From: Thermoproteota archaeon
GTDB taxonomy: Archaea; Thermoproteota; Methanomethylicia; Methanomethylicales; Methanomethylicaceae
Length of the DNA stretch: 64,000 nucleotides
Direction: 5' to 3'
NCBI GenBank assembly: GCA_029887765.1
Contig: JARXPF010000001.1
Span: 64,488-128,487 of the forward strand
The notes under the pieces are model-generated. The model searched no databases. It saw nothing but the letters and a program-made list of their open reading frames with translations, and was not told the origin of the DNA. The first letter of the stretch is position 1, and every line of letters starts with the position of its first letter. Shown piece after piece: positions 16,117 to 62,496 of the stretch. The position numbers and the translations under genes are program-made.

Positions 16117-16151
16117 GATAAAAATTATAAAGAAAGAAAATAAAAAGTTTT

Positions 16152-37670: not shown

Positions 37671-37702
37671 TTATAAATTAGATAATTCTGATAAATAATT
37701 GT

Positions 37703-39217
37703 TTGGTGTATTCTATGAAAATAATAATTGATGGAAAGGAAGTTAATGTTCAAGAAGGTGTTACTATTAGAGATTTTTTACCTGAAAAGAAAAATGAATT
37801 CATTATAGCAGTTAAAAAAATAATTGATGTAAAAAGTGTTATTACAAATCTTTATGAAGTTATAACAACAAAAGGTAAAATGATAATAAAGTGGGAATGT
37901 GAAAAAGCATTAGATAAATGGAGACAAATTTATAAAAACTTTGAAGGATGTAAAGTAAGATGGGCAACAAATGAAGCCATAGCTTTTGGTCCTACAATTA
38001 CAAATTTTAAACCATCAATTAAAGAGGTTGAACTTAAGAAAAATGAAGTTACAATAAGTCTTTCTGGAATGAGTTCTGAAGAATCTCATTTAATATTTAG
38101 TAAAAAATTACATACTGGACTATATTTTCCCCCAAATGATGGAGATGTTATGGGAAGAGTTGTCTATGGAAAACATTTACTTGATTTTTTAAAAATAGGA
38201 GATATGATAAAGAAGATTTCTCCAATAATAGAGAAAAGAGGAGGATTTCAATTAATAAGAGCTAATTTGGATTATATACCAAATGATGGAGATGAAATTA
38301 TAACTAAGATGGAAATTAATTTAGATTATGAATCTCCTAAAAATGGAGAACATTTATACAATATGTTAGAAAATGGGTTTTTTGTTTCAAGAAAAACAAG
38401 TAGGTTCATAGCATATGATAAACAAGTAGTATCATTAGAAAGTGAAAAAATTGGAGTAAGAGAAAGAGGAATAGTTTCTATTAGAAATAATGGGAATAAA
38501 GCAGGTTCAATTTACATTTATATTAATAATGCCCCTATATCTATGAATCATACAATAGTAGGAAAAGTTGTAAGAGGATTAGAAATTGCTGATGTAGCTT
38601 TAGAAGGAGATAAAATAGATTTAGTAATAAATCCAATTAGAATAGAATTATTAGGAAGGACTCAAAAAGAAGCTTCATTAATTTTAGAAAAATTGGGAAT
38701 AAAACATATTAGAGATGGAGATGAAAGAGATGATGCAATAATAGTTGATCATTCACCATCAACAACTTTAGAAATTTTTAAGAAAAAAGAAGTAATTTGT
38801 AAAGGTGTACCCAAAGAAAGAATTTTGAAAATAAAATTATATAGAAATTTAGCACCATCAACTATTGATTATTTTGAGAAAGTTTCTAATATAAATATTA
38901 GAAAAATAGGAAAATTGAAAGTATTTTTTACAACAAAAGACGTAGTACTGTTTAAAGGAAATTTAGAATTAGGAAAGATATTATTACCTGAAAATATTCC
39001 AAAAGACTTTGTTTCTCCTGGAATTATAGGAGTGACTAATTCTGTGAAAAAATATTCAGGTATTATTGGAATAAGAATTTCTAAAAGTGATAGATTTGGT
39101 CCAACAGCTGAGGGATTTGAAGGTAGTAATATAATAGGTGAAGTAATAGAAGGATTAGAAAATTTGAAAAATGTTAAGGAAAATGATGAAGTTTATATTA
39201 TGGAGGTAGATAAATGA
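37703..39217 (+). CDS. UPF0288 / methanogenesis marker protein 3-like
   Basis: 504 aa, matching the family's about 500-aa size. Position in a cluster with the McrC paralog and the A2 paralog. Confidence 0.4.
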   Translation: MVYSMKIIIDGKEVNVQEGVTIRDFLPEKKNEFIIAVKKIIDVKSVITNLYEVITTKGKMIIKWECEKALDKWRQIYKNFEGCKVRWATNEAIAFGPTITNFKPSIKEVELKKNEVTISLSGMSSEESHLIFSKKLHTGLYFPPNDGDVMGRVVYGKHLLDFLKIGDMIKKISPIIEKRGGFQLIRANLDYIPNDGDEIITKMEINLDYESPKNGEHLYNMLENGFFVSRKTSRFIAYDKQVVSLESEKIGVRERGIVSIRNNGNKAGSIYIYINNAPISMNHTIVGKVVRGLEIADVALEGDKIDLVINPIRIELLGRTQKEASLILEKLGIKHIRDGDERDDAIIVDHSPSTTLEIFKKKEVICKGVPKERILKIKLYRNLAPSTIDYFEKVSNINIRKIGKLKVFFTTKDVVLFKGNLELGKILLPENIPKDFVSPGIIGVTNSVKKYSGIIGIRISKSDRFGPTAEGFEGSNIIGEVIEGLENLKNVKENDEVYIMEVDK

Positions 39218-39618
39218 AAACTTATGTTGTAATGTTATCACCAGACTCAAACTTAACACCATCAATGTTAGTAGAAAAAATTTCAAAAATAAGTGGAATA
39301 GTATATAAGGAAACTTGTTATGGTCTATTAATAGAAGGTGAAGAAGAAGTAATTGAAGAAGCTATAAGAGAATTGAAAAGTATGGACCCTAATAGAATAT
39401 TCATTAAAATAAGAGGTTATAGAATTGGAGATGAAAGAATTTGTAGAGCAAAAAGAGGAGGGGGGCCAAGGCCAGGATTTTTCATGTTAGGACAAGAAAG
39501 AAGTGTTTTAAAAAATGTTGTAAAAGCTTTAGAAAGTAAAGAAGAAATTTCAATAAAAAAAGAAAAAAAGAAACTAGATTATAACAAACTTAAAAAAATA
39601 ATAAAGGAGGAAATTTAA
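39214..39618 (+). CDS. Small methanogenesis-marker-type protein (Mmp6-like?)
   Basis: 134 aa. Start overlaps the Mmp3-like stop (ATGA). Gly-rich 'RGGGPRPGFFMLGQE'. Family by size and context only. Confidence 0.35.
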   Translation: MKTYVVMLSPDSNLTPSMLVEKISKISGIVYKETCYGLLIEGEEEVIEEAIRELKSMDPNRIFIKIRGYRIGDERICRAKRGGGPRPGFFMLGQERSVLKNVVKALESKEEISIKKEKKKLDYNKLKKIIKEEI

Positions 39619-39619
39619 A

Positions 39620-40171
39620 ATTAAACTCGTTATAGATTCTTCAGACAAGAAAGGAGGAGAAGTTTATAGACATATAATAGAAAGAAGTATTGAAGACTTA
39701 GCTTTAGGTGGAAGTATTAAATGGATTTATGCATATATAAGGCCAGAAATTCCACTTTTTATAGTTAAAATAAATTATAGAGAATATGAAAGAAAAAATA
39801 TACTCAAAGATTTAGCAAAATTTGAAGTTAAATCAAATGCAATAAAGATTATTTTAAATAATGAATTAGATTTATCAGATGCTTTAAGAGCTCTCTGGAG
39901 TGAAATAGGAAGAGATAGAGTAGAACAGATAGGAAGACAAGAAATATTAGTAAAAAATACTGATTTGGAAATTTTAAAGAATCTAAAAATTAGAGAGAGA
40001 ACAATTAGTATATCAGATAAAATTATTGAATTAATAACAAGAATATTGCCTGAAGGTTTTAGAATTAGGCATTTTATAAAAGAAAATGATGTATTAATTG
40101 TATTAGCATCTGAAGATCCGATTAAGAAAGATTGGATTGATATGGCATTAGGGATGATTGTTGATGCTTAA
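39620..40171 (+). CDS. Hypothetical protein (Mmp5/Mmp17-class size); 183-codon open frame with no ATG/GTG/TTG until codon 116
   Basis: The frame is open from the stop at 39602-39604 to 40171. The ORF track only calls the TTG at 39965 (68 aa). AAGGAGG at 39604-39610 is followed 9 nt later by an in-frame ATT at 39620. The upstream 115 codons are non-repetitive and protein-like. Confidence 0.35.
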   Translation: MKLVIDSSDKKGGEVYRHIIERSIEDLALGGSIKWIYAYIRPEIPLFIVKINYREYERKNILKDLAKFEVKSNAIKIILNNELDLSDALRALWSEIGRDRVEQIGRQEILVKNTDLEILKNLKIRERTISISDKIIELITRILPEGFRIRHFIKENDVLIVLASEDPIKKDWIDMALGMIVDA

Positions 40172-41078
40172 ATATTTAATATTTGAAGGAGGGGTTTATA
40201 AACATGAGCTTATTACTGAATTTGTAGAAGATGTTGGCGGTTTTATTATTCAAAAAAATATTATTGGATTAGACTTAATTATGCATATAGCTATTCCTGA
40301 AGATGATTATAAAAAAATTATAGAAATTGCTAATGAAATAAAAGGCAATTTGAAAGAAGCTCCATTAATAGGTATAGAAATTGCTGTAGTAGCTCCAACA
40401 TTATCTAGACATCATTTACCACATCCAGCATGTGATATTGCAGAAAATTTAAGAAGACATGGAGCAAAAACCAATTTAATAGGATTATCTAGAGGAGTTG
40501 GTCAGAAAATTGCTCATATAAATAAAGATGATATTGAACTCATAGAAGAACATGATATTGCAGTTTTTGTTCTTGGAAATTTTGAATATTGTATTAAGAA
40601 TTTCAAATATAAATTGTTTAAGGATATTTCCATACCAATTATTGTAACTGGTGGACCTGAAGAAATGGATTTACCTGGAATTGAAGGATACGTAGGAGGA
40701 ATTGGAAGATATCCTGAAAGATTTAGAATAAATGAAATGATAGAAAAATTAAACTTAATATCTAAATTAGCAGGAGATATAGCTGAAAAAAGAAGAAAGG
40801 AAATGGACTTAGACCCTTTAATTATAGAACCTGCACTTGTAAAAAAAGAAATTGAAAGACAAATACCAGAAGTATTAGAAGCTTTATCACCTAATCCAGT
40901 TACATTAAAGATAGATGGAGTAAGAATAAAATTACCATATGAAGAATACAAGGATAAAGTAAGTTCCATAAATATTGAAGGAAAAAACTTAAAAGATTTT
41001 GCCATTATTAAAAAATCATTAATGAGAGATTATATATTAGTAAAAATTTTACCAGAATCCTTCTTTATTAAGGTGTGA
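40158..41078 (+). CDS. McrC-family paralog (methanogenesis marker protein 7-like)
   Basis: 306 aa. 'LSRHHLPHPACDIAENLRRHGAKTNLI' aligns by eye with McrC '[26 protein letters not shown]'. Confidence 0.5.
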   Translation: MLMLKYLIFEGGVYKHELITEFVEDVGGFIIQKNIIGLDLIMHIAIPEDDYKKIIEIANEIKGNLKEAPLIGIEIAVVAPTLSRHHLPHPACDIAENLRRHGAKTNLIGLSRGVGQKIAHINKDDIELIEEHDIAVFVLGNFEYCIKNFKYKLFKDISIPIIVTGGPEEMDLPGIEGYVGGIGRYPERFRINEMIEKLNLISKLAGDIAEKRRKEMDLDPLIIEPALVKKEIERQIPEVLEALSPNPVTLKIDGVRIKLPYEEYKDKVSSINIEGKNLKDFAIIKKSLMRDYILVKILPESFFIKV

Positions 41079-41082
41079 ATAA

Positions 41083-42756
41083 ATGCTATTGTGTGAAAAT
41101 ATTGTTAAAGTATTTCAAAATGGAGTTAAAGCTTTAGATTCAATATCATTAGAATTAAAAAGAGGAGAAATTTTAGGAATATTAGGAGAAAGTGGTGCAG
41201 GAAAAACAACTTTATTAAGAATATTAAGAGGAGTAGAAAGTTTTAATAATGGTAGAATATTGTTTGAAGATCTTGAGATAACTCCAAATTCACCAAAAGA
41301 AGTATTTTACGAATTACAAAAAAGAACAGCTATACAACTTCAAAGAACATTTAGTCTTTGGCCAGATTCTGTTATTGACAATGTTATAAGAGCTTTAAGA
41401 TATCAAGATATACGAGAAGAAACTCTACCTCAAAGTGAAGGAGAATATGAAGAATATAAAATTAAAGCTTTAGAAATATTAAAAATTGTAGGACTTGATG
41501 GAAAAGCAGATTTATGGTCTATGATATTAAGTGGAGGAGAAAAACAGAGGCTAATTTTAGCTAGACAAATTGCAAGAAAACCTAAAATTTTATTACTTGA
41601 TGAACCTGGTACAATGACTGATGTTAAAAGTAGAGAAGATTTGATAAATGCATTAAAAAAAGTGAGAGAAGCTTATAATACAAGTATTCTCTTTGTTTCT
41701 CATAATCCTCAAACTCATTTAAAACTTGCAGATAGAGCAATACTTATTGAAAAAGGTAGGAAAATAATGGAAGGAAAAACAGAAGATGTAATAAATGAGT
41801 TTCTTTCAAAATTAGAAAAACCATTGGAAAAGACAATTATAAAGGGAAAAGAAATTCTTAAAATGGAAAATGTTAATAAAATATATAAAATTATTCCATA
41901 TGGAAAAATATTTGAATTAAAAAATGCTAATTTAACTTTTAGAACAGGAGAAATAACTGCAATTATAGGCCCTTCTGCTGCTGGAAAAACAGTACTCTTG
42001 AGAATGTTAGCAGGATTAGAAATGCCAAATTCTGGAAATATAATGTTATATCATAAAGGTGAATGGATTATTTTAAATAAGCTTTGTAAAAAAAGTTTGA
42101 GAGCTAGAAGAAAAATAAGCATAATGCATCAAGAATTTGATCTACCATATTGGTCTGAAGTATTAAGTTTATTTTCTTCAAGACTTGGAATAAAAGATTA
42201 TAAATTATTAGAAAGAGCAATTAAAAAAGCTGAAAAAATGGGATTAAGTGAAATTCATATAGATTTTCTAAGTAGAATTATGGATTTGCCTGAAAATGAA
42301 TTAGAAATTAAATTAAATGAATTAGAAATTGATAGAAATTTCTTAAAAGAAATTTTTAAGGAAAAAAATCTTGAAAAAAGTAAAGAAATTGCAGAAAAAA
42401 TTTTGAGTTGGTTTAATATAAATCCAGAAATACTTAATAGAAAATCTTATGAACTTTCAGGTGGTGAAAAAATAAGAATTGCACTTGCTTTAGCAATAGC
42501 ATCAAATCCTAAAGTATTATTACTTGATGAGCCTTTTGGTGATTTAGATCCATTAAACTTAAGAAGAGTTGCAAATATTTTAAAAAGAATTAAATTACTT
42601 TTCAAACCAGCAATAATATTAGTAAGTCATCAACTTGATTTTGTAGAAGAAGTAGCAGATAGATGTATATTAATTATTAATGGTAAAATTTTAAGTGATG
42701 GCAATCCTTCGATGGTTATTAAAGAATATATGAGGGTAAAAGAAAATGGAATTTGA
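41083..42756 (+). CDS. Twin-ABC ATPase, Mcr component A2-like (paralog 1)
   Basis: 557 aa with two ABC ATPase domains (Walker A 'GESGAGKTT' and 'GPSAAGKTV'; signatures 'LSGGEKQR' and 'LSGGEKIR'). Confidence 0.6.
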   Translation: MLLCENIVKVFQNGVKALDSISLELKRGEILGILGESGAGKTTLLRILRGVESFNNGRILFEDLEITPNSPKEVFYELQKRTAIQLQRTFSLWPDSVIDNVIRALRYQDIREETLPQSEGEYEEYKIKALEILKIVGLDGKADLWSMILSGGEKQRLILARQIARKPKILLLDEPGTMTDVKSREDLINALKKVREAYNTSILFVSHNPQTHLKLADRAILIEKGRKIMEGKTEDVINEFLSKLEKPLEKTIIKGKEILKMENVNKIYKIIPYGKIFELKNANLTFRTGEITAIIGPSAAGKTVLLRMLAGLEMPNSGNIMLYHKGEWIILNKLCKKSLRARRKISIMHQEFDLPYWSEVLSLFSSRLGIKDYKLLERAIKKAEKMGLSEIHIDFLSRIMDLPENELEIKLNELEIDRNFLKEIFKEKNLEKSKEIAEKILSWFNINPEILNRKSYELSGGEKIRIALALAIASNPKVLLLDEPFGDLDPLNLRRVANILKRIKLLFKPAIILVSHQLDFVEEVADRCILIINGKILSDGNPSMVIKEYMRVKENGI

Positions 42757-44638
42757 AGTAAAATTTTTACCTGAGGGTAAGAAAACTTTAGTAAAAGAAG
42801 GAGCTACAGTTTTTGAAGCAGCTCTAAAAGCTGGTGTTGATCTTATAGCATTATGTGGTGGTAAAGGATTTTGTGGAAAATGTTTAATAGAAATTATAAA
42901 AGGAGAAATTCCTCCACCTACAGAACAAGAATTACGTAAAATTGGTAAAGAAAAAATTGAAAAAGGAATTAGACTAGCATGTCAATTAAAAGTATACGAT
43001 AATTTAATAATAGGAGTGCCAAATCAAAGTAGAATAGGAAAACAGAAATTAGTTATAATGGGCGTAGAACCACCAATTAAAATTAATCCAAATGTTAAGA
43101 AATTTTATTTTGAAATTACTCCTCCATCATTAGATGACCCTAGAGGAGATGATTTAAGAATAAATGAAATTTTATCAAATATAAACAATATTTCATTTAA
43201 TTATTCATTAGTTAAAGAAATGCCATCAATTCTAAGAGAAAGTAATTGGAAAGTCACTTTAACAATAGTAAATAATGAATTAATAAATATACAACCTGGT
43301 GATAAGACAAAAGATTGCTATGGAGTTGCAGTAGATATTGGAACTACAAAACTTGCAGTATTCATAGTAGATTTGTTAAGTGGTGATATATTATTTGCAG
43401 ATGGAATGATGAATCCACAAATAAAATATGGAGAAGATGTGATTTCAAGAATACAATATGCATCTCAAAGTAATGAAAATCTTAGAGAAGTTCAAAATGC
43501 AATAATAAATGGAATAAATGGATTAATAGAAAAAGGATTAAAGGAAACTGGTATAAATAAAGAGGATTTATATGAAATGGTCGTAGTAGGAAATACTGCT
43601 ATGCATCACTTATTCTTAGGATTAAATGTAAAATGGCTTGGTTTAGCACCTTATGCTCCAGTAATAGGAATGGGATATAATGTTAAGGCAAGAGAAATTG
43701 GAATTAACATAAACCCTTCTGGTAATGTTTATACATTACCAAATGTAGCAGGTTTTGTAGGTGCTGATGCTATAGCAGATATCTTAGCATCAAAAATATA
43801 TGAAAAAGATAATTTAACACTACTCATGGATGTTGGAACAAATACTGAAGTAATATTAGGGAATAAATATGAGCTTTTATGTTGTTCCACAGCTTCTGGA
43901 CCGGCATTTGAAGGAGCTCATATAAAATTTGGTATGAGAGCTGCAAGTGGGGCAATAGAAAGAGTGAAAATAAAAGAAGATTTTGAAGTTGAATATTCTA
44001 CAATAGATGATGAAAAAGCAAGAGGAATATGTGGCTCAGGTATTATAGATGCTATTGCTGAAATGTTAAGAACAGGAGTAATAGATACTGCTGGTAGAAT
44101 TGTATTAGAAAATCATAAAAGAGTACGAAAAGGAGAATTTGGTAAAGAATTCATTATTGTATTTAAAGAAGAAACAGCTACAGGTGAAGAAGATATTGTA
44201 ATAACTCAAGAAGATATTAGAGAAATACAGAAAGCAAAAGCTGCAATGTATGCTGGATATATGACACTTATGAGAGTAGGAGGTTTTAAGAAAGAAGATT
44301 TATTTGAAATAATAATTGCAGGAGCTTTTGGAAGTTATATTGATCCATTAAGTGCAAAAATCATAGGAATGATACCTGAATTACCAATATCTAAAATATC
44401 ATTTTTAGGTAATACAGCAGGATCAGGTGCAAGAATATGTTTAAAATCAATTGATTATAGAAAAAAAGCTGAAGAAATTGCTAAAAAAATGAAGTATATA
44501 GAGTTAGCTGTAATGCGAATTTTTGAAGAAGAATATATAAACGCAATGTTTTTACCAAATAGTAGAATTGAAGATTTTCCAGAAGTAATGAGTATTATAA
44601 AAGCACCAATAAATGTGAAAAGATATGTTAAAAAATGA
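42746..44638 (+). CDS. RACo-type reductive activase: N-terminal plant-type 2Fe-2S ferredoxin fused to ASKHA-fold ATPase (COG3894/DUF4445)
   Basis: 630 aa. 'CGGKGFCGKC...LACQ' 2Fe-2S pattern, then a large domain with 'GVAVDIGTTK' and 'LLMDVGTNTE' ASKHA phosphate motifs. Start overlaps the A2 paralog stop. Confidence 0.6.
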   Translation: MEFEVKFLPEGKKTLVKEGATVFEAALKAGVDLIALCGGKGFCGKCLIEIIKGEIPPPTEQELRKIGKEKIEKGIRLACQLKVYDNLIIGVPNQSRIGKQKLVIMGVEPPIKINPNVKKFYFEITPPSLDDPRGDDLRINEILSNINNISFNYSLVKEMPSILRESNWKVTLTIVNNELINIQPGDKTKDCYGVAVDIGTTKLAVFIVDLLSGDILFADGMMNPQIKYGEDVISRIQYASQSNENLREVQNAIINGINGLIEKGLKETGINKEDLYEMVVVGNTAMHHLFLGLNVKWLGLAPYAPVIGMGYNVKAREIGININPSGNVYTLPNVAGFVGADAIADILASKIYEKDNLTLLMDVGTNTEVILGNKYELLCCSTASGPAFEGAHIKFGMRAASGAIERVKIKEDFEVEYSTIDDEKARGICGSGIIDAIAEMLRTGVIDTAGRIVLENHKRVRKGEFGKEFIIVFKEETATGEEDIVITQEDIREIQKAKAAMYAGYMTLMRVGGFKKEDLFEIIIAGAFGSYIDPLSAKIIGMIPELPISKISFLGNTAGSGARICLKSIDYRKKAEEIAKKMKYIELAVMRIFEEEYINAMFLPNSRIEDFPEVMSIIKAPINVKRYVKK

Positions 44639-51392: not shown

Positions 51393-52637
51393 ATGATAGA
51401 AATGCCAGTAAGAATTGCACAAATATCGTGTGGAACTGAATATAGTGGTATACAAAAAGAAATAGAAAAAGCTGCTGAAATGGTTGGAGGAAGAATAATA
51501 ATACCTGAAATAGATTTAAAAGATATAAATGAGGCAGAAGAAGAATTAGGATTTCATGCAGTTAGTAATGGATTGAAAATAATGATGGCAAGAGCAAAAG
51601 CTATTGTAGAAAAAAGAGTAGAAGTAGATGGAGCTTTTTTAGCTACATGTTTTAGATGTGCTGAAGGAGCTTTAGTAAGGAGTATTATTAGAAGATATAT
51701 TCAAAGTAAAAGCAAAATTCCAGTAGTAACATATTCTTTTACTGAAAGAACTAAAGCAGGAACTCTTTTATTGAGAATGGAAGCATTGGTGAACATAGTT
51801 AGTAAAAAACCACTTTTTGCAAGAACAAAACAAGAAGGTATTACAGCAGGCATAGATTCAGGATCAACAACAACAAAAGCTGTAGTTATGAAAGATAATG
51901 AAATTATTGGTATTGGATGGTTGCCAACAACAAGTGTTTTAGAAAGTGGTAAAAAAGCACTTGAAATTGCATTAAAAGAAGCAAAATTAAGTATTGATAA
52001 ATTAGAAGCCATAGGTGTTACAGGTTATGGAAGAAGAATATTAAAAGAATATTATAATGCACAACTTTCAATGGAAGAAGTTTCCACATGTTCAAAAGGA
52101 GCATTATATCTATGTAACAAGCAACAAGGAGATGCTACAGTAATAGACATAGGAGGTATGGATAATAAAGCTATTACACTTTATGATAGTATACCAGATA
52201 GTTTTACAGTTGGAGGAGTTTGTGCTGGAGCTTCTGGTAGATTTCTAGAGACAAGTGCAAAAAGATTAGGAATAACTCTTGATGAATTTGGAGAATTAGC
52301 ACTTAGAGGAGATTATAGAAATGTATCAATGAATGCATATTGTATAGTTTTTGGTCTTCAAGACTTAGTTGCAGCATTAGCTAGTGGAGCAAAAATAGAG
52401 GATGTTGCAGCTGCAGCATGTTATAGTGTAGCTGAACAAGTTTTTGAACAACAACTTCAAGAAATTGATATAAGATATCCAATAATTCAAGTAGGATCTA
52501 CAGCACTTATAAAAGGTCTTGTAAAAGCTATGTCTAATATTTTAAGTACAGATGTTATAGTTCCAGAAAAACCTAATTTAATAGGAGCTGTTGGAGTTGC
52601 ATTAATGGTTTCGGGTATGAAAGAACTTGAAAGGTGA
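51393..52637 (+). CDS. BadF/BadG/BcrA/BcrD-type ATPase with N-terminal extension (methanogenesis marker protein 15-like)
   Basis: 414 aa. '[14 protein letters not shown]' acetate/sugar-kinase-type phosphate-1 motif after an about 150-aa N-domain. Second motif '[12 protein letters not shown]'. Confidence 0.5.
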
Positions 52638-53832
52638 AAAAGTGATTTTAAAATCGATTAAGAAAATTTGTAAAGAAGGAACACATAGAGCTAAAGATTT
52701 CAATGAAACTTTACTTTTTTTAGAAAATATTTATCATAAAGCAGGAATAACAAGAATAGCAGATATAACTGGACTTGATATTATAGGAATACCAGTATTT
52801 ACTTCTATTAGACCTACTGCTGCTGAAGGAGCAATAACTGTCTATAATGGAAAAGGTCATACACCTGAAGTTGCTAAAATTTCAGCAATAATGGAAGGTA
52901 TTGAAAGATATTCAGCTGAACCAGATTATTCAAAGATTATAAAAGGAAGTTATGAAGAATTATCTAAATCATATGAAATTTTAAACCCTAATGAATTAAT
53001 ATTACCATACTATAGACAATATTTTTTTCATGAGGAAATAGAATGGGTATTTGGCTTTTCATTAATAAAAAATAAAGAAATTTTAGTACCTGCTGAAGCT
53101 GTTTTTCATCCATATAGAAGAAATAATCAATTATTTAGAACAAATACTAATGGACTTGCTGCAGGAAATGTTATTGAAGAAGCCATATTACATGCATTAT
53201 TGGAAGTTATAGAAAGAGATGCATGGTCTTTATATGAAATAGGAATTACAAAATCTAAAGATGTAGAAATAGATTCGAATGGACTAGTAAAAGAATTATT
53301 AAAAAAATTTGAAAAAGCTTCTATAAGCGTATACATAAAAGAAATAACTTCAGATATAGAAATTACAACAATAGCAGTAGCACTAGATGATGAAAAAACA
53401 AAAGATCCAGCATTACTTTCACTTGGTATAGGCTGTCACTTAGTTCCTGAAATAGCACTTATAAGAGCTTTAACTGAAGCTGCACAAAGTAGACTAACAA
53501 CAATACATGGAACAAGAGAAGATACTTATAGAGCTGGTTTTGCAAGAATAATAGGATATGAAAGAATGAAAAGATTAAATAAAAAATGGTTTGAAAAATC
53601 TGAGGAAAAAGTAAGATTAAGTGAAATGAAATGTTTTGATAGTTCAGATTTTCTAGATGATATAAATTATATTCTAAATAAGTTAAGAAAAGTAGGATTA
53701 AATGAAGTCATTGTAGTTGATTTAACTAAAAAAGAAATTGAAGTACCTGTTGTTAGAGTAATAGTTCCAGGATTAGAGGTATATGCATTAGATAAAGATA
53801 GAATAGGAAGACGTTGTAAGAGGAAAAAATAA
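52627..53832 (+). CDS. ycaO: YcaO-domain protein (McrA glycine thioamidation-type)
   Basis: 401 aa. YcaO ATP-binding region '[15 protein letters not shown]...EGIERYSAE'. Followed immediately by a TfuA-like gene. Confidence 0.65.
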
Positions 53833-54470
53833 TGAAAATTATAGTATTTTTAGGTCCAAGCTTACCATTAAATGAAGCTAAAAATATAATTTCAGTAGAA
53901 TATAGACCTCCAGCAGGTAGAGGAGATGTTTTGAAGGCTATGGATGAAGGAGCAAAAATTATTGGATTAATTGATGGAGTTTTTTACCAAAGAGCTGCAG
54001 TATCACATAGAGAAATTTTAAGTGCTATTAAAAATGGAGTCATGGTTATTGGAGGAGGAAGTATTGGAGCAATAAGAGCAAGTGAATTAGACATTTATGG
54101 AATGATAGGTGTTGGTGAAATTTATAAATGGTATAAACAAGGAAAAATTATTGGTGATGATGAAGTAGCTGTAGCCTTTCATCCAATAACATATCAACCA
54201 ATTTCAGAAGCATTAGTTAATATTAGAGCAACTCTTGATTTCATTAAAAATATGGGAAAAATTTCTGAAGAAGAAGTTAATTTAATTTTGCGAATTGCAA
54301 AAGAGACGCCCTTCTACTTAAGAAGTTATAATAGGATATTACAAAAAGCAATTCTTGAATTAGGAAAAGAAAGAGTAAAAGAAATTGCAGAATTAGTAAA
54401 TTACAATAAAATAGATCAAAAAAAATTGGATTCTATTGAAGTATTAAAAAAAATAAAGAGTATCATTTAA
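53832..54470 (+). CDS. tfuA: TfuA-like protein
   Basis: 212 aa. Start overlaps the ycaO stop. 'GLIDGVFYQRAAVSHREIL...GGGSIGAIRASEL' TfuA-like. Confidence 0.55.
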   Translation: MKIIVFLGPSLPLNEAKNIISVEYRPPAGRGDVLKAMDEGAKIIGLIDGVFYQRAAVSHREILSAIKNGVMVIGGGSIGAIRASELDIYGMIGVGEIYKWYKQGKIIGDDEVAVAFHPITYQPISEALVNIRATLDFIKNMGKISEEEVNLILRIAKETPFYLRSYNRILQKAILELGKERVKEIAELVNYNKIDQKKLDSIEVLKKIKSII

Positions 54471-54513
54471 ATATTGGCTATTTTAAATACAATTTGACTC
54501 ATGGGGAAAGGTA

Positions 54514-56112
54514 ATGACAGAACCATTCATTATATTAGACAATGTTTCTAAAAAATTTGGCAATAATTATGTTCTTAAAAATATATCATTTATAATAAAT
54601 GAAGGAGATTGCATTGGAATTTTAGGAAAAAGTGGATCTGGTAAAAGTGTATTAATATCAATGATTAAGGGTTTAAATAATTATGAACCTACATCAGGTA
54701 AAATAATATATAGAATAGCTTATTGTAAATTATGTGGTTTTGTTGAAAGACCAAGTAAAGCTGGAGAGAGATGCCCTAATTGTAAAAATAATTTAGAATT
54801 AATAGAAGTAGATTTTTGGAATGAAAAAACAATTGCACAACATATTAAAAAAAGAGTTGCTATTATGTTTCAAAGAACTTTTGCCCTTTATGGTAATTTA
54901 ACAGTCTATGAAAATATAGTAGAAGCATTTGGTAGAAGATGGAAAGAAGAAAATGCTGAAATTACAAAAAAAGCTTTAAAACTTATAGAAAAAATGGGGC
55001 TTTCTCATAGATTAATTCATATAGCAAGAGATTTAAGTGGAGGAGAAAAACAGAGAGTCGTATTAGCTAGACAATTAGCCATAGATCCAATATTATTACT
55101 TGCAGATGAACCAACAGGAACACTTGATCCCTCAAGTACAAAAATGATATATGATGTACTTAATGAAATAAAAGAACAAAAAATAACAATGATAATTACC
55201 TCACATTTAACAGAAACTATAGAAGCATTAAGTAATAAAGCTATTCTATTGAATCATGGAAAAATTGAGGCTGTGGGAGAACCAAAAGAAATTATAAAAA
55301 TTTTCCTATCAGAAGGTTTAGAAGAAATTAAGGAAGAGAAAACATTAGTAGAAGATGTTATATTAAAAGTAGAAAATGTTAAGAAATATTTCTTTTCCAT
55401 AGATAGAGGAATTGTTAAAGCATTAGATGGAGTTTCTTTTGAAGTATTGAAGGGACAAATATTTGGAATTGTAGGAGTAAGTGGAGCAGGAAAAACTACA
55501 CTTTCAAGAATAATAGCAGGACTAACTACACCTACTTCTGGAAAGGTATTAATAAAAATAGGTGATGAGTGGGTGGACATGAGTGAGCCAGGAATTATGG
55601 GGAGAGGAAGAGCTACTAATTATATAGGAATACTACATCAAGAATATTCTCTATATCCATATAGGACTATATTAGAAAATCTTACAGATGCTATTGGATT
55701 GGAATTACCAGATGAATTTGCCAAATTTAAAGCATTAATGACACTTAAAGCTGTAGGTTTTGAAGAGGACTATGCAGAAAGTTTATTAAATAAATATCCA
55801 GATGAACTAAGTGAAGGAGAGAGACATAGAATAGCACTTTCTCAAGTATTAATAAAAGAGCCTTTATTAGTAATATTAGACGAACCAACAGGAACCATAG
55901 ATCAAGTAACTCAAAAGTATATTATAAAATCTATAAAAAATGCAAGAAAAGAACTTAAACAAACATTTATAATAATTTCACATGATGTAAATTTTGTAAT
56001 TAAAACGTGTGATGAAGCTATTTTACTTAGAAATGGAAATATAATAGCAAAAGGACCTACTACTGAAGTTGTTAAACACTTATTACCTGAGGAAAAATTA
56101 AGTAATGCTTAA
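54514..56112 (+). CDS. atwA: Twin-ABC ATPase, Mcr component A2-like (paralog 2, with Cys4 insert)
   Basis: 532 aa. Two ABC domains (Walker A 'GKSGSGKSV' and 'GVSGAGKTT'; signatures 'LSGGEKQR' and 'LSEGERHR'). Zinc-ribbon-like insert 'CKLCG...CPNC' in domain 1. Confidence 0.65.
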
Positions 56113-57033
56113 TCCAATAACAGATTCTTTTGAAAAATCGATGAATGTAGCTCTAGATCCTTTAAATATAACTTCAAGCTTTTTATTCTCAGTAAATTCA
56201 CCAATACACTCAACAGAAAAACCAACTTCTTCTAAAATATTAATATTCTCCTCTTTAGACAATCCAAAAATAAAGCCCATTGCTGGATATGAAGTTAGCC
56301 ATTCTATAATAGATAAGTCCTTAGGAATTGGTACTTTACTGAGATCAATTAATGCACCCACATTACTTGCTTCACATAACATTGCGAGACTTCCTAATAT
56401 TCCTGGGGCACTAATATCTTTTGAACATTTCACATTATTACTATTAATGAAAGATATTAATGCTGATAACATTTCCTTAATCTTTTTTGAAGATTTTTTT
56501 ATAGTACTATCAAAGCATTTAACCCAACCTTTTTTAATTAAAAATCCATCAATGTCTATTGCTATGAAAATTTTTTGAGAAGGTCTAGCAGTATCACCTC
56601 TTACAACTTTATTTGCAATTCCAATTACTGCAGCATCTACAGAAGAATATGATGTATCTGGATGTGTATGTCCTTTAAGAAGTTTAAGTCCATACTTTTC
56701 TAATCCATCCTTTATTCCTTTTGCAATTTTACTTCTAATTTCTCTTGGTCCTGCTATTACATTTACATATCCAATTGGCCATGCTCCTTTTACAATAACA
56801 TCATTTACATTAACAAGAACAGAATAATAGCCAGCTAACCATGGATCTATAATAACTAAATCTTCAGTTATACCATCAGTTGAAACTACAATATATCTTC
56901 CATTTAAACTTATTATACCAGCATCATCATAATCTATATTTCCAAAAATTTTAATTATCTCACCAATTTCTACTTTCCTAGAAAAACCTTTGAATTCCTT
57001 TGCTATACGAATAATTTCATCTAAAGATTCCAA
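56098..57033 (-). CDS. PurM-like (AIR-synthase-related) ATP-binding protein, methanogenesis-marker-2-like
   Basis: 311 aa. 'DDAGII...VVSTDG' N-domain and C-terminal PurM-like domain. Confidence 0.4.
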   Translation of the reverse strand: MESLDEIIRIAKEFKGFSRKVEIGEIIKIFGNIDYDDAGIISLNGRYIVVSTDGITEDLVIIDPWLAGYYSVLVNVNDVIVKGAWPIGYVNVIAGPREIRSKIAKGIKDGLEKYGLKLLKGHTHPDTSYSSVDAAVIGIANKVVRGDTARPSQKIFIAIDIDGFLIKKGWVKCFDSTIKKSSKKIKEMLSALISFINSNNVKCSKDISAPGILGSLAMLCEASNVGALIDLSKVPIPKDLSIIEWLTSYPAMGFIFGLSKEENINILEEVGFSVECIGEFTENKKLEVIFKGSRATFIDFSKESVIGLSIT

Positions 57034-57084
57034 TAAAATCCCCTCAAATTAATAAGGAAAAAAGTACATATTTATATTAAGATT

Positions 57085-57372
57085 TTGGAGGTGATTAAGA
57101 TTAAAGAAGGAACTGTAGTAATTTATAAAAGAACTGGTACAATTGGAAAAATTGTAGAATTAAAAAATATAGATGGAAAAGTTTGGGCAAGACTTGATAC
57201 TACTAATCTTTTATATGATATAGATTTCTTAGAAGAAGCTAAAGAATATGAGCAAGAAATAGAAAAAATCAATCAAAAAGAAGAAAAGAAAATAGAAAAA
57301 ATCATTGAAGTAAAAGAAATTAAAGATGAAGGAACTATGGATTCTAGTGCCGGAGTGTGTGGTGCAGGTTAA
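57085..57372 (+). CDS. Small hypothetical protein (95 aa; KOW/SH3-like N-terminus, acidic linker, C-terminal 'SSAGVCGAG')
   Basis: ORF only. Located between the PurM-like gene and the HAD-like gene. Confidence 0.3.
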   Translation: MEVIKIKEGTVVIYKRTGTIGKIVELKNIDGKVWARLDTTNLLYDIDFLEEAKEYEQEIEKINQKEEKKIEKIIEVKEIKDEGTMDSSAGVCGAG

Positions 57373-58115
57373 TTTTGAAATTTGCAATAGTATTTGATAA
57401 ATCTGGAACTATTTTAAAACCATGTAGAGTGGCTTTTGACATAAAAAGAAAGAAGCTACTTTATCATATAAGTACATTAAAACTTGTAAAAGATGTTGAT
57501 GGTTATTTACTAAATATAGAAGGAGATATTAAAAAAATAAAGAGTGGAAAACAAAAACCTTTTTTCAAAATAAGTTGTACATTTTCTAAGATTTTACCAA
57601 AAATTGAAGAAGATATAATACTTAAAAAAGAAATTTTAGAAGCTTTAGAAAAAGTTGAAGAAGAAGCAAGTAGACATTGTAATTCTGAAATAGGAACTTG
57701 CACTGCATTAATATTAAACAATTATGGAGAGCCAATATATGCCATAGGACTAGGTGGTAGAATATATGAAGATTTTAAAAATATAGTAGATGAAATAAGG
57801 TCTAAAAGTGATATATTTATAGCAACAGGAAATTGTAAAAATGCTACATTAAAATTCATAAAGAAGTTAAAAATAAATAAACATTTTGTAATATATAATG
57901 CCTCTCCAAAGGAGAAAATGGAATTTGTAAAAATGCTTAAATTATTTTATGCTTATGTTATTATGGTAGGAAATGATATTAATGATTTAATGGCAATGAA
58001 GGAGGCAGATATTTCTATTTTTGTAAATAGAGAAAATGAAGATATTAATTATGATGTAGATTATATTATAAAATCCCTAAATGATCTTCCAAAAATAATA
58101 TCAGTTAAATTTTAA
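57357..58115 (+). CDS. HAD-superfamily hydrolase (P-type-ATPase-like subfamily)
   Basis: 'IVFDKSGT' (motif I) near the N-terminus. 'MVGNDINDLMAMKEADISI' (motif IV). The true start is probably a TTG just after 57372. Confidence 0.45.
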   Translation: MWCRLILKFAIVFDKSGTILKPCRVAFDIKRKKLLYHISTLKLVKDVDGYLLNIEGDIKKIKSGKQKPFFKISCTFSKILPKIEEDIILKKEILEALEKVEEEASRHCNSEIGTCTALILNNYGEPIYAIGLGGRIYEDFKNIVDEIRSKSDIFIATGNCKNATLKFIKKLKINKHFVIYNASPKEKMEFVKMLKLFYAYVIMVGNDINDLMAMKEADISIFVNRENEDINYDVDYIIKSLNDLPKIISVKF

Positions 58116-58688
58116 GATATCATAATAATGACATTGATATTCTGAATGAAAATGAGGTAAAGCTTTTGCTAATTCTATTTCCAACACTCTTAAATTTATC
58201 AATTCATAATCTTTAATTATTGATGACAATCCTTCTTGAATAGATTTAGTACAGAATATACTATGTGGAACAAATCCAGCTGTAGTTATGAAAATGCAAT
58301 TTTTATCTAATTTTATTAATTCATTAATATGTTTCTCATCAAAGCCATATCGTACTTCTTCAAAAAAAGACTTAATACAACAATTAGGATAATTCAAAAA
58401 TCTTCCAATTTCCCAATCTGAAAAATTCTTATTAAAAATTCCAATTTGTAATGATGTATAAGGATCTAAAGCAGGACGAACAGGTGGATTAAAAGATTTT
58501 ACAATTTCTAATTGTAAATTTAATCTCTCAGGAATATCAAAAAGACGATCTTCTTGAAATAATTTTGCAATATGTTCTGCAAAGTTAGGAAAATTAAAAT
58601 ATTTTTCTCTCGCTTCTTTAGGTGAAAGTGTAGAAATATCAAAAATAGTTTCAATAATTTTTTTTAAAGCTAAATAACCTCTTTTCAT
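58101..58688 (-). CDS. Uncharacterized 195-aa protein encoded directly downstream of mcrA (co-oriented, 17-nt gap)
   Basis: ORF contains 'NYPNCC' and scattered Cys/His. No family recognised. Position implies co-transcription with mcrBGA. Confidence 0.45.
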   Translation of the reverse strand: MKRGYLALKKIIETIFDISTLSPKEAREKYFNFPNFAEHIAKLFQEDRLFDIPERLNLQLEIVKSFNPPVRPALDPYTSLQIGIFNKNFSDWEIGRFLNYPNCCIKSFFEEVRYGFDEKHINELIKLDKNCIFITTAGFVPHSIFCTKSIQEGLSSIIKDYELINLRVLEIELAKALPHFHSEYQCHYYDILKFN

Positions 58689-58704
58689 AAAAAAAATAAA
58701 AAAA

Positions 58705-60372
58705 TTAATGACTTGGTATTATTAGATCTCTTTCTCCTGCAGGCATGAATTCTCTAAGAGCACCTTTTCCAAAGCAAAGTCTTGGATGTGTAAAATCAAA
58801 TTTCAAGTCTTTATCAGCAAAAGCAACCTTTATTAATGGATTTGTTGTCCAAGCGTCACCTCTTCCACCATGAGCAGCTGAAACTATTCCAGTATAAGCT
58901 GATTGATGACCTACATTCATAGCATAGTTTGGATAGTTAACTCCTCTTAAGTTAAATACTAGTCCTTCATCACTTCTCCAAGAGAAGCTATTTGCTGAGC
59001 CACATTGATCTTGACAGTCGTAACCATAAAATCCTAATCTTCCCATTTCTTCTTTATGTAATAATTGACTTAAGTACCAACCATTTACACCAGCTGTAGC
59101 ATGACCAGTTGCAAGAGCCACAGATACACCTGCTGCAGCTGCTACAACTGCAGCTCTTTGAGAACCACCAAAGTGAGTCTCCATTAATGCAGGATATCTC
59201 TCATATTGTTCTAATCCATAAATTGATACTTCTGTTGCTATATCTTTAATTATATCCCAACTTGGTTTAACTTTTGCAAATCCACCATATTTCTTCTTTA
59301 CATAGTCTGCACCATAGTAACAGAAATCATCTAATATATTGTCTGTATAAGTACAAGTTGCATATTGTGTAAAGCCTACACCACCAGACATATAACTACC
59401 AAACCAGAATTGATCATAAAGTACTGCTCCCATGGATATGGCTTCTAAAGCCACCCAAACAGGATCATCTGGTTTAACTCTTGAAGCTTGACATATATCT
59501 GCAACATAGCCTAATGGAATTCCTCCAGGTTCATTAGGACCTCTTGCTCTTCTCCAAGGTAGTAATGTGCCCATTTCAATTAGTTCTGCATGTTTTGCGG
59601 CAAATGCAAATTCTCCTACTGCAGCTTCACCTGCCATTAACTTATAAGCATTAATCATAGACATTGAAATTTGCATAGCTGCCCATCTTGACATTGTAGC
59701 ACCATCACATGTCATGGCTACAATTGTGGGCATTCTACAAACTTGATATAATCGTTTGCCAATAGCAGCTTTTAATTGTGCAGCATGATCTGGTGGAAAT
59801 TCTTTATTAATATCTATTAAGAATCTATCATCAATTTCATCAGCTAATTCATCATCACCAGTAAATACTTTAACATAACTATCTGAGACTAATCCAGGAT
59901 GAGTTTCTACCATATGTTCTTGAACTACTGCAGCACCAGGTAGAGCATGATTTAAAACTTCTAAGTAGTGATTTATAGTTTCAGGAGTTACTTCTTTACC
60001 AAGTCTCTTTGTTAGAACCATATGTGCTGCATCAAGACCTACTATAACTGTACGTCTGATATCATGCCACATTTGTTGCATTGCAGCATTATTAATAAAG
60101 TGAAGATCATCTCCTTCACAATAAATATCTGTTCCTGATAAACGATATGGCATTAAAACTCTTTGTCCTAAAGGTATGCCACCTAAGTGAAGGTCTGGAT
60201 TATAAAATGGAATTCCTCTTTCTTTCGCAATTTTTTGAGCAATTTCTACGAATTCTCTTTTCCTTTTTGATTGTTTCCATCCATCATATATATAGAATTT
60301 TGTATATTTTTCTTCAGGAGCTTCTTTAAATTTTCTTCTCAAAGCCTCTATAAACATTTTTTCTTCACTCAT
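58705..60372 (-). CDS. mcrA: Methyl-coenzyme M reductase alpha subunit
   Basis: 555 aa. '[23 protein letters not shown]', 'FGGSQRAAV', '[10 protein letters not shown]' McrA hallmarks. Confidence 0.9.
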
Positions 60373-60383
60373 AAATTCACCCC

Positions 60384-61169
60384 CTATATTCCTTTAATTT
60401 TATTTGGATTAAAACCTGCTTCTGTTCTTAACATATGAATTCTTTGTATAAACTGAATTAATTCATTATCCGTTCTAAAACTTATACCATCAACTCTGAA
60501 TTCACTTGTCCTTTTTCTTAATTCTTCTTCAGGCATAGGCTTTCCTAATGAAATTGGTTTATCTAAAGGTACGCCTACTTGATCCTTAATATATATTACT
60601 TCACCAGTAGTTTTATCATATTGATATCTTCGTAATGCATCAAACATTAGTCCATTTTCATCTAATCTTAAAGCATGCCCATGTACTGTAGCTCCTCTAA
60701 TTCCCACTCTTGCTGGATCAAAGACTTCAGTTTCAATAAGTTCTTTTGCTACTTTTTCTAAATCACGTTCTCTTGCTTCTAATGGTACTCTACCAGAGAG
60801 AACTCCAATATCTACTCCACGATATCTATAATGCCCCATCCATGCTCTCATGTATGGTGTCAATGGAGCGAAGTATACTGAGTCTGTAAATTGAACATAT
60901 CGAATTCTATCTCCTGCTTTTGCACCTGGTGTAGGTTCAACTAATTGTCTAATTGGACAATCTGGCTCTCCCATTTCTTCAAGAGGTGGATGAACACTTT
61001 TATAAGCTTCTCCTGGAGCTCTATGACCTAATATTCTAACTAAATCCTCATCACTTATTGATCTTAGTTTTTCCAATTTATAATTTGGATTAATATACTT
61101 TCTTCTATTAGCAGCTATAGCTGAAGATCCAGGATAATATTGAGGAGTATATTCTACCAATTCACACAC
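60384..61169 (-). CDS. mcrG: Methyl-coenzyme M reductase gamma subunit
   Basis: 261 aa, McrG length. 'HYRYRGVD', '[10 protein letters not shown]'. Located between mcrB and mcrA. Confidence 0.85.
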
Positions 61170-62496
61170 CTCCTTTTATAGAAACTGCAGCTTCATTTAC
61201 ATAACGCAATGGTTCTCTCAACTCAGGAACTTCACTTAAAACTTCTCCAACTATTCCACTAATTTTTTCTGGAGTGTATATAGTAGTTCCAGCATCCAAA
61301 GCTACAGCTGCAGCTACACATGGTATGGCAAAACCTTTACTATGTCTTGTAACTATGTGATTTCCATGGAATACTGCAGGATTTCCTCCTCCATAAATTG
61401 AGTGGCTAAAGAAGGCCATTTCTACACCAGTTCCTGCAACTCTTCCAAAATCAACACCAGGTAGACCTGTCTCTCTTTCAATTAAATCATTAAAGTATAT
61501 TAAAACAGAGGGCACATGTTGCATTGCTCTAGCTGCACCACATGTAACCATAGTTGCAGCCAATAATCCTGCAGCAGCATATGCATTCCACTTACTCACA
61601 TCATCTGTAGTATACAGAGTATATCCAGAAGGCATTTTACTTAATGGTCTTATTACACCATCTTCTAATGCTCTTTTAACAGTAGAAATTACCACACTTC
61701 CAAGAGTTCCATCTTTTCCATTTTCTTTTACAAGATCATAAACTAAATTATTAGCATTTAATCCTTGATATGCTAATCCTAATAGATGGTATCTTTCAAA
61801 GTTTCCAATTGCATCTCCCATTTCAAACATAGCAGTTTGCTCTAATATAGTAGCAAGTGCTGCAGCATTCATAGCATTCCTTTTTGTTATAAGTGCAATA
61901 TGAGCACATGGAATATTTCTTAATGCATAACCCATACCTTCATTTTGCTGAGGAACTGCTAATAAAGAAGAAACATTTCCTCCTAACATATCCATAGTTT
62001 GAGGATATCTACCCCAAACTGCAGTGTGTACAAGATCAGCATCCCATATGCTTACATTGAATTTTTCAATTATTGTACAACATAAAGCAGCAGCAACAGC
62101 TGTTACACCTGTTGTATATTCAACCCCTGCATCTAATCTTTTCCTTGGTACTTTGACAAGTAAATATTTTCCTCCTTTTATTGCTTTAACTTCTGTATCA
62201 TCATTTGGATCAACTTGAAGACATTTTTTCAAATCCTCTGCAATACTTTCTGCATTTTTGACTAAATCAAGTTTTAGAGATCTTCCCCTTATTATACAGA
62301 ATTTTCCTCCAACTTCACCAATGGCTAAAGCCTTCTCTATACCTTCTAAATTTACTGCAACAAATTGCTTTATATTATTAATTATTTTTTGTATTGCTGG
62401 ATTCTTTAGAGGACTTATAGCTTCTATTGGTATATTAGTATCAAAAAGTCTACCACGGTCGTCATATAGGTCGATTTTATCTGAATATTTTGCCAT
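61162..62496 (-). CDS. mcrB: Methyl-coenzyme M reductase beta subunit
   Basis: 444 aa. N-terminus '[15 protein letters not shown]' matches the canonical McrB start. SD 'gaggatgggg' about 10 nt upstream. Confidence 0.85.

Follow-up and report, generated by a model that had tools for sequence, protein, structure and literature searches.

A conserved Mcr locus of a Methanomethylicaceae archaeon: known helpers of the methane-forming enzyme and probable accessory genes

Methyl-coenzyme M reductase (Mcr) makes nearly all biological methane, and its modification, its assembly and its reduction to Ni(I) are only now being worked out; the marker proteins Mmp2, Mmp5, Mmp6 and Mmp15 are still without an assigned step. 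Which of the genes gathered around mcrBGA serve this enzyme, and which only lie beside it, is the question raised by a locus at 51.4-62.5 kb of a 64,000-nucleotide stretch of contig JARXPF010000001.1 (assembly GCA_029887765.1, positions 64,488 to 128,487), hereafter the window. The window comes from a member of the Methanomethylicaceae, a family of the phylum Thermoproteota formerly called Verstraetearchaeota; its GC content is about 29%, and its proteins are 99-100% identical to those of contig JAWAIR010000002.1 (GCA_038888335.1), from a metagenome-assembled genome (MAG) labelled Candidatus Methanomethylicaceae archaeon. Taken as a whole, this is very probably a conserved Mcr locus of a methylotrophic Methanomethylicaceae archaeon, in which known helpers of the enzyme are joined by probable accessory genes.

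The gene map was built from the listing of open reading frames (ORFs) and from profile scans (NCBIfam with its curated cut-offs, and Pfam). The features of the locus are as follows.

51393-52637, plus strand: mmp15 (TIGR03286, 651 bits, cut-off 456, profile positions 1-404 of 404; PF01869, 209 bits)
52627-53832, plus strand: ycaO, Mmp1 (TIGR03266, 490 bits, cut-off 365; PF02624)
53832-54470, plus strand: tfuA (NF033432, 263 bits, cut-off 235; PF07812)
54514-56112, plus strand: atwA, predicted A2, a twin-ABC ATPase (TIGR03269, 767 bits, cut-off 517)
54724-54783, plus strand: Zn-binding motif of A2, CxxC-x12-CxxC (C71, C74, C87, C90)
56098-57033, minus strand: Mmp2-like gene of the PurM/AIR-synthase superfamily (TIGR03267, 245 bits, cut-off of 365 not reached; AIRS and AIRS_C)
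57085-57372, plus strand: DUF2098 gene, 95 amino acids (PF09871, 70 bits, positions 1-94 of 94)
57357-58115, plus strand: HAD protein, soluble P-type-ATPase-like, 252 amino acids (PF00702)
58101-58688, minus strand: DUF483 gene, 195 amino acids (PF04467, 95.5 bits, gathering threshold 25)
58689-58704, minus strand: oligo-T tract between the mcrA stop and the DUF483 ATG (read from the sequence)
58705-60372, minus strand: mcrA (TIGR03256, 1016 bits; best PDB match 1E6V, E 3e-272)
59002-59034, minus strand: McrA loop, residues 447-457 (ungapped alignment to 1MRO chain A)
60384-61169, minus strand: mcrG (TIGR03259, 393 bits)
61162-62496, minus strand: mcrB (TIGR03257, 684 bits)

These genes form four transcription units: mmp15, ycaO, tfuA and atwA, read rightward; the Mmp2-like gene, leftward; DUF2098 and HAD, rightward; and mcrB, mcrG, mcrA and DUF483, leftward, where the mcr operon proper is mcrBGA without mcrC and mcrD. 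Of the 12 genes that lie at 51.4-62.5 kb, ten match Mcr families or families of methanogenesis markers, and the remaining two, HAD and DUF483, are linked to Mcr through their context only. The upstream flank is made of housekeeping genes (a DRG-type GTPase, ThiN, ThiD, NadE and triose-phosphate isomerase), and the downstream flank of a helix-turn-helix (HTH) regulator and an ABC transporter.

The original prediction, made from the letters of the window, had placed maturation and activation genes convergent to mcrBGA, and all the genes that it listed are present there; its assignments of Mmp15, YcaO, TfuA and A2 are borne out, since all four pass the curated profile cut-offs. ycaO probably starts at the GTG at 52642, four nucleotides past the mmp15 stop (otherwise the mmp15 stop overlaps the ycaO start), and its product is annotated as 396 amino acids in a near-identical MAG contig (L001). 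The tfuA start had been said to overlap the ycaO stop, and in fact the TAA of ycaO and the ATG of tfuA share one nucleotide in TAATG at 53830-53834. By orthology, McrBGA would be the methane-forming enzyme; YcaO would activate the backbone carbonyl of Gly450 of McrA with ATP, and TfuA would support the delivery of sulfur, yielding thioglycine.

In an ungapped alignment of McrA residues 428-490 with 1MRO chain A, Gly450 aligns to thio-Gly445 and Cys457 to S-methyl-Cys452. Asp455 corresponds to Asp450 of M. marburgensis, and the same offsets pair His261 with methyl-His257, Arg275 with methyl-Arg271 and Gln405 with methyl-Gln400. The glycine and the cysteine are thus conserved, as had been claimed, but the motif cited for them lies at residues 331-342, about 115 residues off; from its sequence and an offset of +4 we take that motif to be the Phe330/Tyr333 active-site stretch of M. 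marburgensis. Some other positions of McrA vary among lineages. Cys453 (about 59014-59016) stands where M. marburgensis has Leu; it is shared by the nearest relatives among Methanomethylicia (L008-L016, L018) and by Nezhaarchaeota, and Gln takes its place in Methanosuratincola and Methanomethylicus. Cys340 (FTQYATCTY, about 59353-59355) is typical of Methanomethylicia McrA, and the S-methylcysteine position is occupied by Ala in the McrA of two other loci, L051 and L019. The radical-SAM motif CxxxCxxC is found in no open frame of at least 100 amino acids in the window, in agreement with the earlier statement that an Mmp10-like gene is missing from it.

The last gene of the first unit, atwA, encodes an ATPase with two nucleotide-binding domains, with Walker A motifs at residue 38 (GKSGSGKS) and residue 321 (GVSGAGKT) and Walker B motifs at residue 194 (LLLADE) and residue 452 (LVILDE). 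Its Cys4 insert, CKLC-x12-CPNC at residues 71-90, has the form of the zinc-binding motif CxxC-x12-CxxC, by which A2 can be told from its paralogs and which is required for full ATPase activity (2026 preprint); the zinc site of A2 is visible in the activation complex of Mcr as solved by cryo-EM (2025 Nature paper). Because its score is above the cut-off and the Zn motif is present, the ABC ATPase at 54514-56112 is identified from its sequence as the genuine A2, and the other copy in the window, with 306 bits and without the motif, as a paralog. It had been described as a second A2-like ATPase with a Cys4 insert: the insert stands, and is the published Zn motif, whereas the label does not, since this copy is the true A2. 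The biochemistry of A2 from other sources shows that its ATP hydrolysis is stimulated by Mcr and that it binds McrG, and by orthology the A2 of this locus, with its two nucleotide-binding domains and its Zn motif, would likewise bind McrG with ATP.

A second component of the activation machinery is the 95-amino-acid protein. A search of the PDB with the single sequence returned no relative; a profile made of 12 orthologs from related loci matches chain L of 8S7V, 8S7X and 9H1L end to end (E 3-5e-8, residues 10-93), and a C-terminal GAG is common to the orthologs and to the PDB chain. In M. maripaludis, DUF2098 (10.6 kDa) co-purifies with McrC, Mmp3, Mmp7, Mmp17 and A2, and a flexible loop of McrC holds it in the activation complex (2025 Nature paper). 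Moreover, ProPhylo (2011) scored DUF2098 as a perfect methanogen marker and listed Mmp2 as a marker likewise. The profile match identifies the 95-amino-acid protein as DUF2098, the predicted small subunit of the Mcr activation complex; the earlier statement that it has no established role does not hold, DUF2098 being a subunit in PDB 9H1L. From Methanomethylicia to M. maripaludis, the last residues of DUF2098 are a conserved (C/S)-G-A-G (57355-57372 in the window), and every Methanomethylicia DUF2098 gene is divergent from a PurM-type Mmp2-like neighbour.

The other subunits are encoded in a second Mcr-related cluster at 36273-44638, about 10 kb upstream, a cluster that the original prediction did not link to this unit. 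Its main features are the following.

36273-37670, minus strand: operon of mcrD-like, mcrC and mmp5 (TIGR03260, 55 bits, weak; TIGR03264, 280 bits; TIGR03271, 214 bits)
37703-41078, plus strand: mmp3, mmp6, mmp17 and mmp7 (TIGR03268, 479 bits; TIGR03272, 133 bits; TIGR03291, 45 bits, C-terminal part; TIGR03274, 397 bits)
41083-42756, plus strand: predicted A2 paralog, twin-ABC (TIGR03269, 306 bits, below 517; only three Cys, no CxxC pairs)

The plus strand of this cluster also encodes a RamA/AcsV-type corrinoid activase, and the A2 paralog corresponds to the 'paralog of AtwA' that was listed as a methanogen marker in 2011. McrC, Mmp3, Mmp7 and Mmp17, encoded 10-15 kb upstream of the unit, are by analogy the remaining predicted subunits of the activation complex; with A2 and DUF2098 they would form, by orthology, the complex that reduces the Ni(II) of F430 to Ni(I). 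The 26 kb from 36.3 to 62.5 kb hold the genes for the structural enzyme, for all known subunits of the activation complex and for the thioamidating pair, together with the other markers that have no known function.

Two details of the second cluster concern gene starts and small ORFs. In the mmp17 frame (39600-40171), about 120 codons pass without an ATG, GTG or TTG; the sequence GGAGG is found at 39606-39610 and an in-frame ATT at 39620, and mmp17 probably starts at this rare ATT, giving about 183 amino acids against a model length of 185. A 79-amino-acid ORF at 36031-36270 on the plus strand (MIVEKKKYLMPIPAGTPYS...) resembles a 92-amino-acid ORF beside mcrD-like in the Nezhaarchaeota locus L039 (7538-7816), and neither matches an NCBIfam family; another ORF of 92 amino acids adjoins mcrD-like in L051 (4177-4455), the likeness there being one of size and position. 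The 79-amino-acid ORF may encode a small Mcr-linked protein.

Elsewhere the window also holds genes for an MtaA-type methylcobamide:CoM methyltransferase (6850-7839, minus strand), an HdrD/GlcD-like pair (19549-22440, minus strand) and an acetyl-CoA synthetase (28886-30838, minus strand), which fit the H2-dependent methylotrophic lifestyle described for Methanomethylicia.

Does the Mmp2-like gene belong to the same machinery? It converges with atwA, the 3' ends overlapping by 15 nucleotides, and diverges from DUF2098 across 51 nucleotides. Its product has AIRS and AIRS_C domains, its nearest solved proteins are SelD, PurM, HypE and ThiL, and TIGR03267 (Mmp2) is its best family, below the cut-off. 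Eight homologs from TACK archaea (Methanomethylicia, Nezhaarchaeota and Bathyarchaeia) score 233-287 bits with this model, all below the cut-off, and because all the TACK homologs tested fall in this range the protein is read as belonging to a TACK sister clade of Mmp2, hence its name. An artefact of the GC content of 29% was considered for the sub-threshold score and rejected, as GC-richer TACK homologs score no better. Named homologs come from the same three groups, and some carry a fused acetyltransferase-type (GNAT) domain; outside Methanomethylicia, linkage to Mcr was seen in L051 and L098. The PurM-like protein had been described as lacking an established role in Mcr biology: it is indeed embedded in the unit on the minus strand, but its closest family is a methanogen marker. 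Both this protein and Mmp15, a BcrAD/BadFG-type ATPase, are conserved marker proteins for which any step in Mcr biology is putative.

The HAD gene probably starts at the TTG at 57375, two nucleotides past the DUF2098 stop (otherwise the two overlap), and may be translationally coupled to DUF2098. Its product shows DKSGT (residues 14-18), ATGNC and GNDIND, that is, a P-type core without membrane domains, and conserved cysteines at positions 23, 108, 115 and 160; the nearest solved relatives are soluble catalytic fragments of CopB and CopA (E 6.5e-7), and homologs carry the IMG label 'soluble P-type ATPase'. By its motifs and the names of these homologs it resembles the soluble P-type ATPase class; arCOG01579 is reported from more than 90% of methanogens when Methanomassiliicoccales are set aside, and from no archaea besides these (Borrel et al. 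2014). A metagenome scan with the HAD alignment returned nearly only Methanomethylicia loci of the same order, together with three relatives of 29-30% identity in unrelated contexts, and no DUF2098-HAD pair outside Methanomethylicia. The gene had been presented as one with no established role in Mcr biology; it is present and embedded as described, and it resembles a class published as methanogen-restricted. Moreover, the 95-amino-acid and HAD genes do precede mcrA, but the DUF483 gene between HAD and mcrA had been overlooked.

Of the whole unit only DUF483 is truly uncharacterised, every other component belonging to described families. Its gene starts 16 nucleotides past the mcrA stop and converges with HAD in a 15-nucleotide overlap. 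On the coding strand the mcrA stop is followed by T7-A-T8 and then by the DUF483 ATG, and a T-tract of one or two T6-T8 runs is present at this junction in all ten other Methanomethylicia loci inspected (L005, L008, L009, L012, L017, L020, L023, L026, L035 and L037), including GC-richer ones. Oligo-T runs are archaeal termination signals, and the tract at 58689-58704 looks like such a terminator. Most transcripts of the highly expressed mcrBGA would, we infer, end there, and DUF483 would be expressed by read-through.

Within the HAD/DUF483 overlap, at 58095-58115, two base pairs are missing in the window in comparison with the otherwise identical contig (TTTAACT[CA]GATATT; L001, 8901-8990). 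Both C-termini are shortened by this loss, and the longer tails are conserved in sister species; the loss must be due to an error of the assembly or to a frameshift in this strain.

As regards the family itself, a Pfam scan (E <= 1) of 19 diverse members detected PF04467 and no second family. A word-index search found relatives in Methanomethylicia only, and of 1.84 billion cluster representatives just 25 matched the DUF483 profile at E <= 1e-3, and 13 did so at E <= 1e-10. The named holders are Methanomethylicia, Nezhaarchaeota, a Bathyarchaeota MAG, Methanocaldococcus and a MAG labelled Methanopyri; one more contig has neighbours resembling the mtxX region of Methanobacteria. YPxCC and (F/Y)xP(C/H)SxxC are found family-wide, most members also have RPALDP and LPHxH, and the alternation of His and Cys at position 142 suggests a putative metal ligand. 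The AlphaFold (AF2) model is mostly helical with a small sheet (mean pLDDT 94, pTM 0.90); Foldseek found no match to it in the PDB at E <= 0.001, and the profile had no meaningful match among PDB sequences. The literature search found no archaeal or Mcr-related mention of DUF483/PF04467. The genomic contexts of its members are the following.

Methanomethylicia, L098 and L019: mcrBGA-DUF483
Nezhaarchaeota L039: DUF2098-DUF483-mmp5-mmp15
Bathyarchaeota L050 (mtr also present): A2 paralog-A2-YcaO-DUF483
L051: YcaO divergent from DUF483-mmp5-mmp15, within a full Mcr supercluster
Methanocaldococcus: without nearby Mcr genes
L095 and L096: flanked by two KaiC-like ATPases
L097: downstream of a B12 radical-SAM gene
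L099: without nearby Mcr genes
L030: without nearby Mcr genes

The idea that DUF483 always accompanies mcr is rejected by Methanocaldococcus, L095/L096, L097, L099 and L030, where no Mcr genes are nearby. A radical-SAM partner was also considered and is unsupported: the radical-SAM enzymes upstream of DUF483 in L097 and L039 are 27% identical and belong to different families. The DUF483 of L030 (9983-10582) has 55% identity and clusters by sequence with the Methanomethylicia proteins; no Mcr gene lies within 10 kb of it, and its neighbours are housekeeping-looking ORFs read as CDC48-, IleRS- and helicase-like.

Is the gathering of these genes around mcrBGA a sign of common function or of inherited gene order? 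The full order, housekeeping flanks included, recurs in Methanosuratincola (among them the complete LWZ-6 and LCB70 genomes) and in Methanomethylicus, and the same order is found in about 60 other genomic or metagenomic Methanomethylicia loci. However, the flanks (DRG-type GTPase, ThiN and ThiD on one side, ABC transporter and HTH regulator on the other) are equally conserved within the class, so that within-class synteny alone is no proof of function. The informative loci are those with other arrangements. The deep-branching L098 keeps mcrBGA-DUF483 together and, elsewhere, keeps a block in which HAD and DUF2098 diverge from the Mmp2-like gene, beside a gene for the Mcr glutamine C-methyltransferase (TIGR04014, 487 bits; 16020-17375); A2, YcaO, TfuA and Mmp15 are not beside this block. 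In the Nezhaarchaeota L039, the glutamine C-methyltransferase (505 bits; 8074-9495), DUF2098, DUF483, mmp5 and mmp15 lie a few kb from mcrBGA with overlapping junctions. The glutamine C-methyltransferase gene, absent from this window, directly adjoins DUF2098 in both of these loci, which represent two classes.

The alternative that survives best is that HAD, DUF483 and the Mmp2-like gene are passengers, which lie here because the genome rearranges slowly and its gene order is inherited, and that their work is unrelated to Mcr, for instance in phosphatase or metal handling or in ATP chemistry of the thiamine or selenium type. We rate this as rather less likely than not; several observations count at once for it and against a role of these genes in Mcr biology. 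Besides the syntenic flanks, DUF483 is away from Mcr genes in Methanocaldococcus, in the Methanopyri-labelled MAG, in the Methanobacteria-like contig, in L097 and in L030, and its euryarchaeal neighbours are of other kinds: KaiC-like ATPases, a B12 radical-SAM gene, and ORFs read as hemA- and sirC-like. Relatives of the Mmp2-like protein with 46-47% identity lie without nearby Mcr genes in Nezhaarchaeota L006 and Bathyarchaeota BA2 L007, and the protein itself misses the Mmp2 cut-off (245 against 365 bits). HAD is found at this position only in Methanomethylicia and is missing from the clusters of Nezhaarchaeota, L050 and L051.

Against mere passengers stands the fact that DUF483 stays by mcr or marker genes across five arrangements in at least four TACK lineages, and that all its named holders are methanogens or Mcr-encoding lineages. 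The HAD start overlaps the DUF2098 stop or follows it after two nucleotides, and the soluble P-type ATPase class is published as restricted to methanogens. In L098, DUF2098, HAD and the Mmp2-like gene move as one block, which ends beside an McrA-modifying enzyme; this movement as one block suggests that the three act together.

In a second alternative, DUF483 would handle sulfur or a metal as a partner of the YcaO that carries out thioamidation, either adding to the work of TfuA or taking its place where there is none. It finds its ground in the two loci where YcaO and DUF483 are close: in L050 YcaO is directly followed by DUF483 and in L051 it is divergent from it, the two YcaOs satisfy the McrA-specific model, with 424 and 409 bits, respectively, and neither has a TfuA within 10 kb. 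YcaO also flanks mcrBGA-DUF483 in L019; the conserved cysteines and the one His/Cys swap fit a metal or persulfide site; and DUF483 is present in Methanocaldococcus and in the Methanopyri-labelled MAG, Methanocaldococcus jannaschii and Methanopyrus kandleri being reported without TfuA yet with thioglycine. However, the DUF483 of Methanocaldococcus is not near ycaO, and the absence of TfuA in L050 and L051 is established only within 10 kb of YcaO. TfuA-independent YcaOs, moreover, work in vitro on sulfide alone. Because Methanomethylicia and Nezhaarchaeota encode both TfuA and DUF483, we consider this alternative improbable.

The original reading of the unit, in which the PurM-like, 95-amino-acid and HAD genes are new Mcr-linked genes without an established role and the ABC ATPase is merely an A2-like second copy, is right in that the genes are embedded in the unit but is hardly tenable otherwise, since the 95-amino-acid protein is a solved subunit of the activation complex, score and Zn motif mark the ABC ATPase as the true A2, and Mmp2 and the soluble P-type ATPase are long-listed methanogen-specific families.

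We therefore return to a conserved Mcr locus made of known helpers and probable accessory genes, where HAD and DUF483 would, from their context, probably be lineage-restricted accessory factors in the maturation or activation of Mcr. A more detailed proposal for DUF483 can be put forward only tentatively, and we regard it as doubtful: it would be an accessory metalloprotein of Mcr maturation or activation, kept mainly in deep-branching, often thermophilic methanogens, produced at a low level by terminator read-through, and its partner would be the DUF2098/Mmp5/Mmp15 module or else the thioamidating YcaO, in which case DUF483 might replace TfuA in lineages without it.

The core of the finding adds little, consisting of the expected gene set in its Methanomethylicia arrangement. 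In fact, the clustering of markers with mcr and the occasional proximity of ycaO-tfuA to mcr are already published, and the phylogenetic profiling that had been proposed is largely published as well (the ProPhylo markers Mmp2 and DUF2098; arCOG01579). The link between DUF483 and Mcr, which was not found in the searched literature, is the one modestly novel lead. DUF483 is a candidate helper of shortlist quality: a tiny orphan Cys-rich family that travels with mcrA, YcaO, DUF2098, Mmp5 and Mmp15 in several classes of TACK methanogens. Since the cultured strains Methanosuratincola petrocarbonis LWZ-6 and M. verstraetei LCB70 carry the same locus (L017, L022), the ideas about DUF483 and about DUF2098, HAD and the Mmp2-like protein are directly testable.

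The closest known systems are the Mcr activation complex of M. maripaludis (8S7V/9H1L) and the 'MCR activation operon' of M. acetivorans, with which the window shares A2 with its Zn motif, DUF2098, McrC, Mmp3, Mmp7 and Mmp17, and also Mmp5, Mmp6 and Mmp15. In contrast to them, the genes are here in two clusters 10 kb apart, ycaO-tfuA separates A2 from Mmp15, DUF2098 lies between mmp2-like and HAD, and mcrC and mcrD are outside the mcrBGA operon. The ycaO-tfuA locus of M. acetivorans (Nayak et al. 2017) likewise has a stop/start overlap; here both genes pass McrA-specific equivalog models and the target glycine is conserved. Published contexts of the pair are mostly sulfur or molybdopterin genes, with methanogenesis genes nearby 'occasionally', as in the MCR operon of Methanomassiliicoccus, whereas here the pair stands between mmp15 and atwA, 4 kb from mcrA.

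The supercluster of methanogenesis markers of Methanomassiliicoccales, of about 16 kb, was read as a functional linkage to Mcr (Borrel et al. 2014), and there too a single small region holds mcr and most of the markers without a known function. It differs from the present locus in phylum and gene order and in lacking the soluble P-type ATPase, and the searched literature holds no report of DUF483 in Methanomassiliicoccales. With Mmp2 (TIGR03267) and the sll0787 AIR-synthase-like family, the Mmp2-like protein shares PurM-type N- and C-terminal domains, and it neighbours marker genes as Mmp2 typically does; unlike Mmp2, it scores below the cut-off, and some of its relatives carry a GNAT domain or lie far from Mcr genes. 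Finally, the HAD protein shares with the soluble P-type ATPase (COG4087/arCOG01579, which we take to be the MJ0968 type) the stand-alone catalytic core with DK(S/T)GT and GxDxND-like motifs, and differs from it in that this clade has TGN for TGD and four conserved cysteines, and is always encoded downstream of DUF2098.

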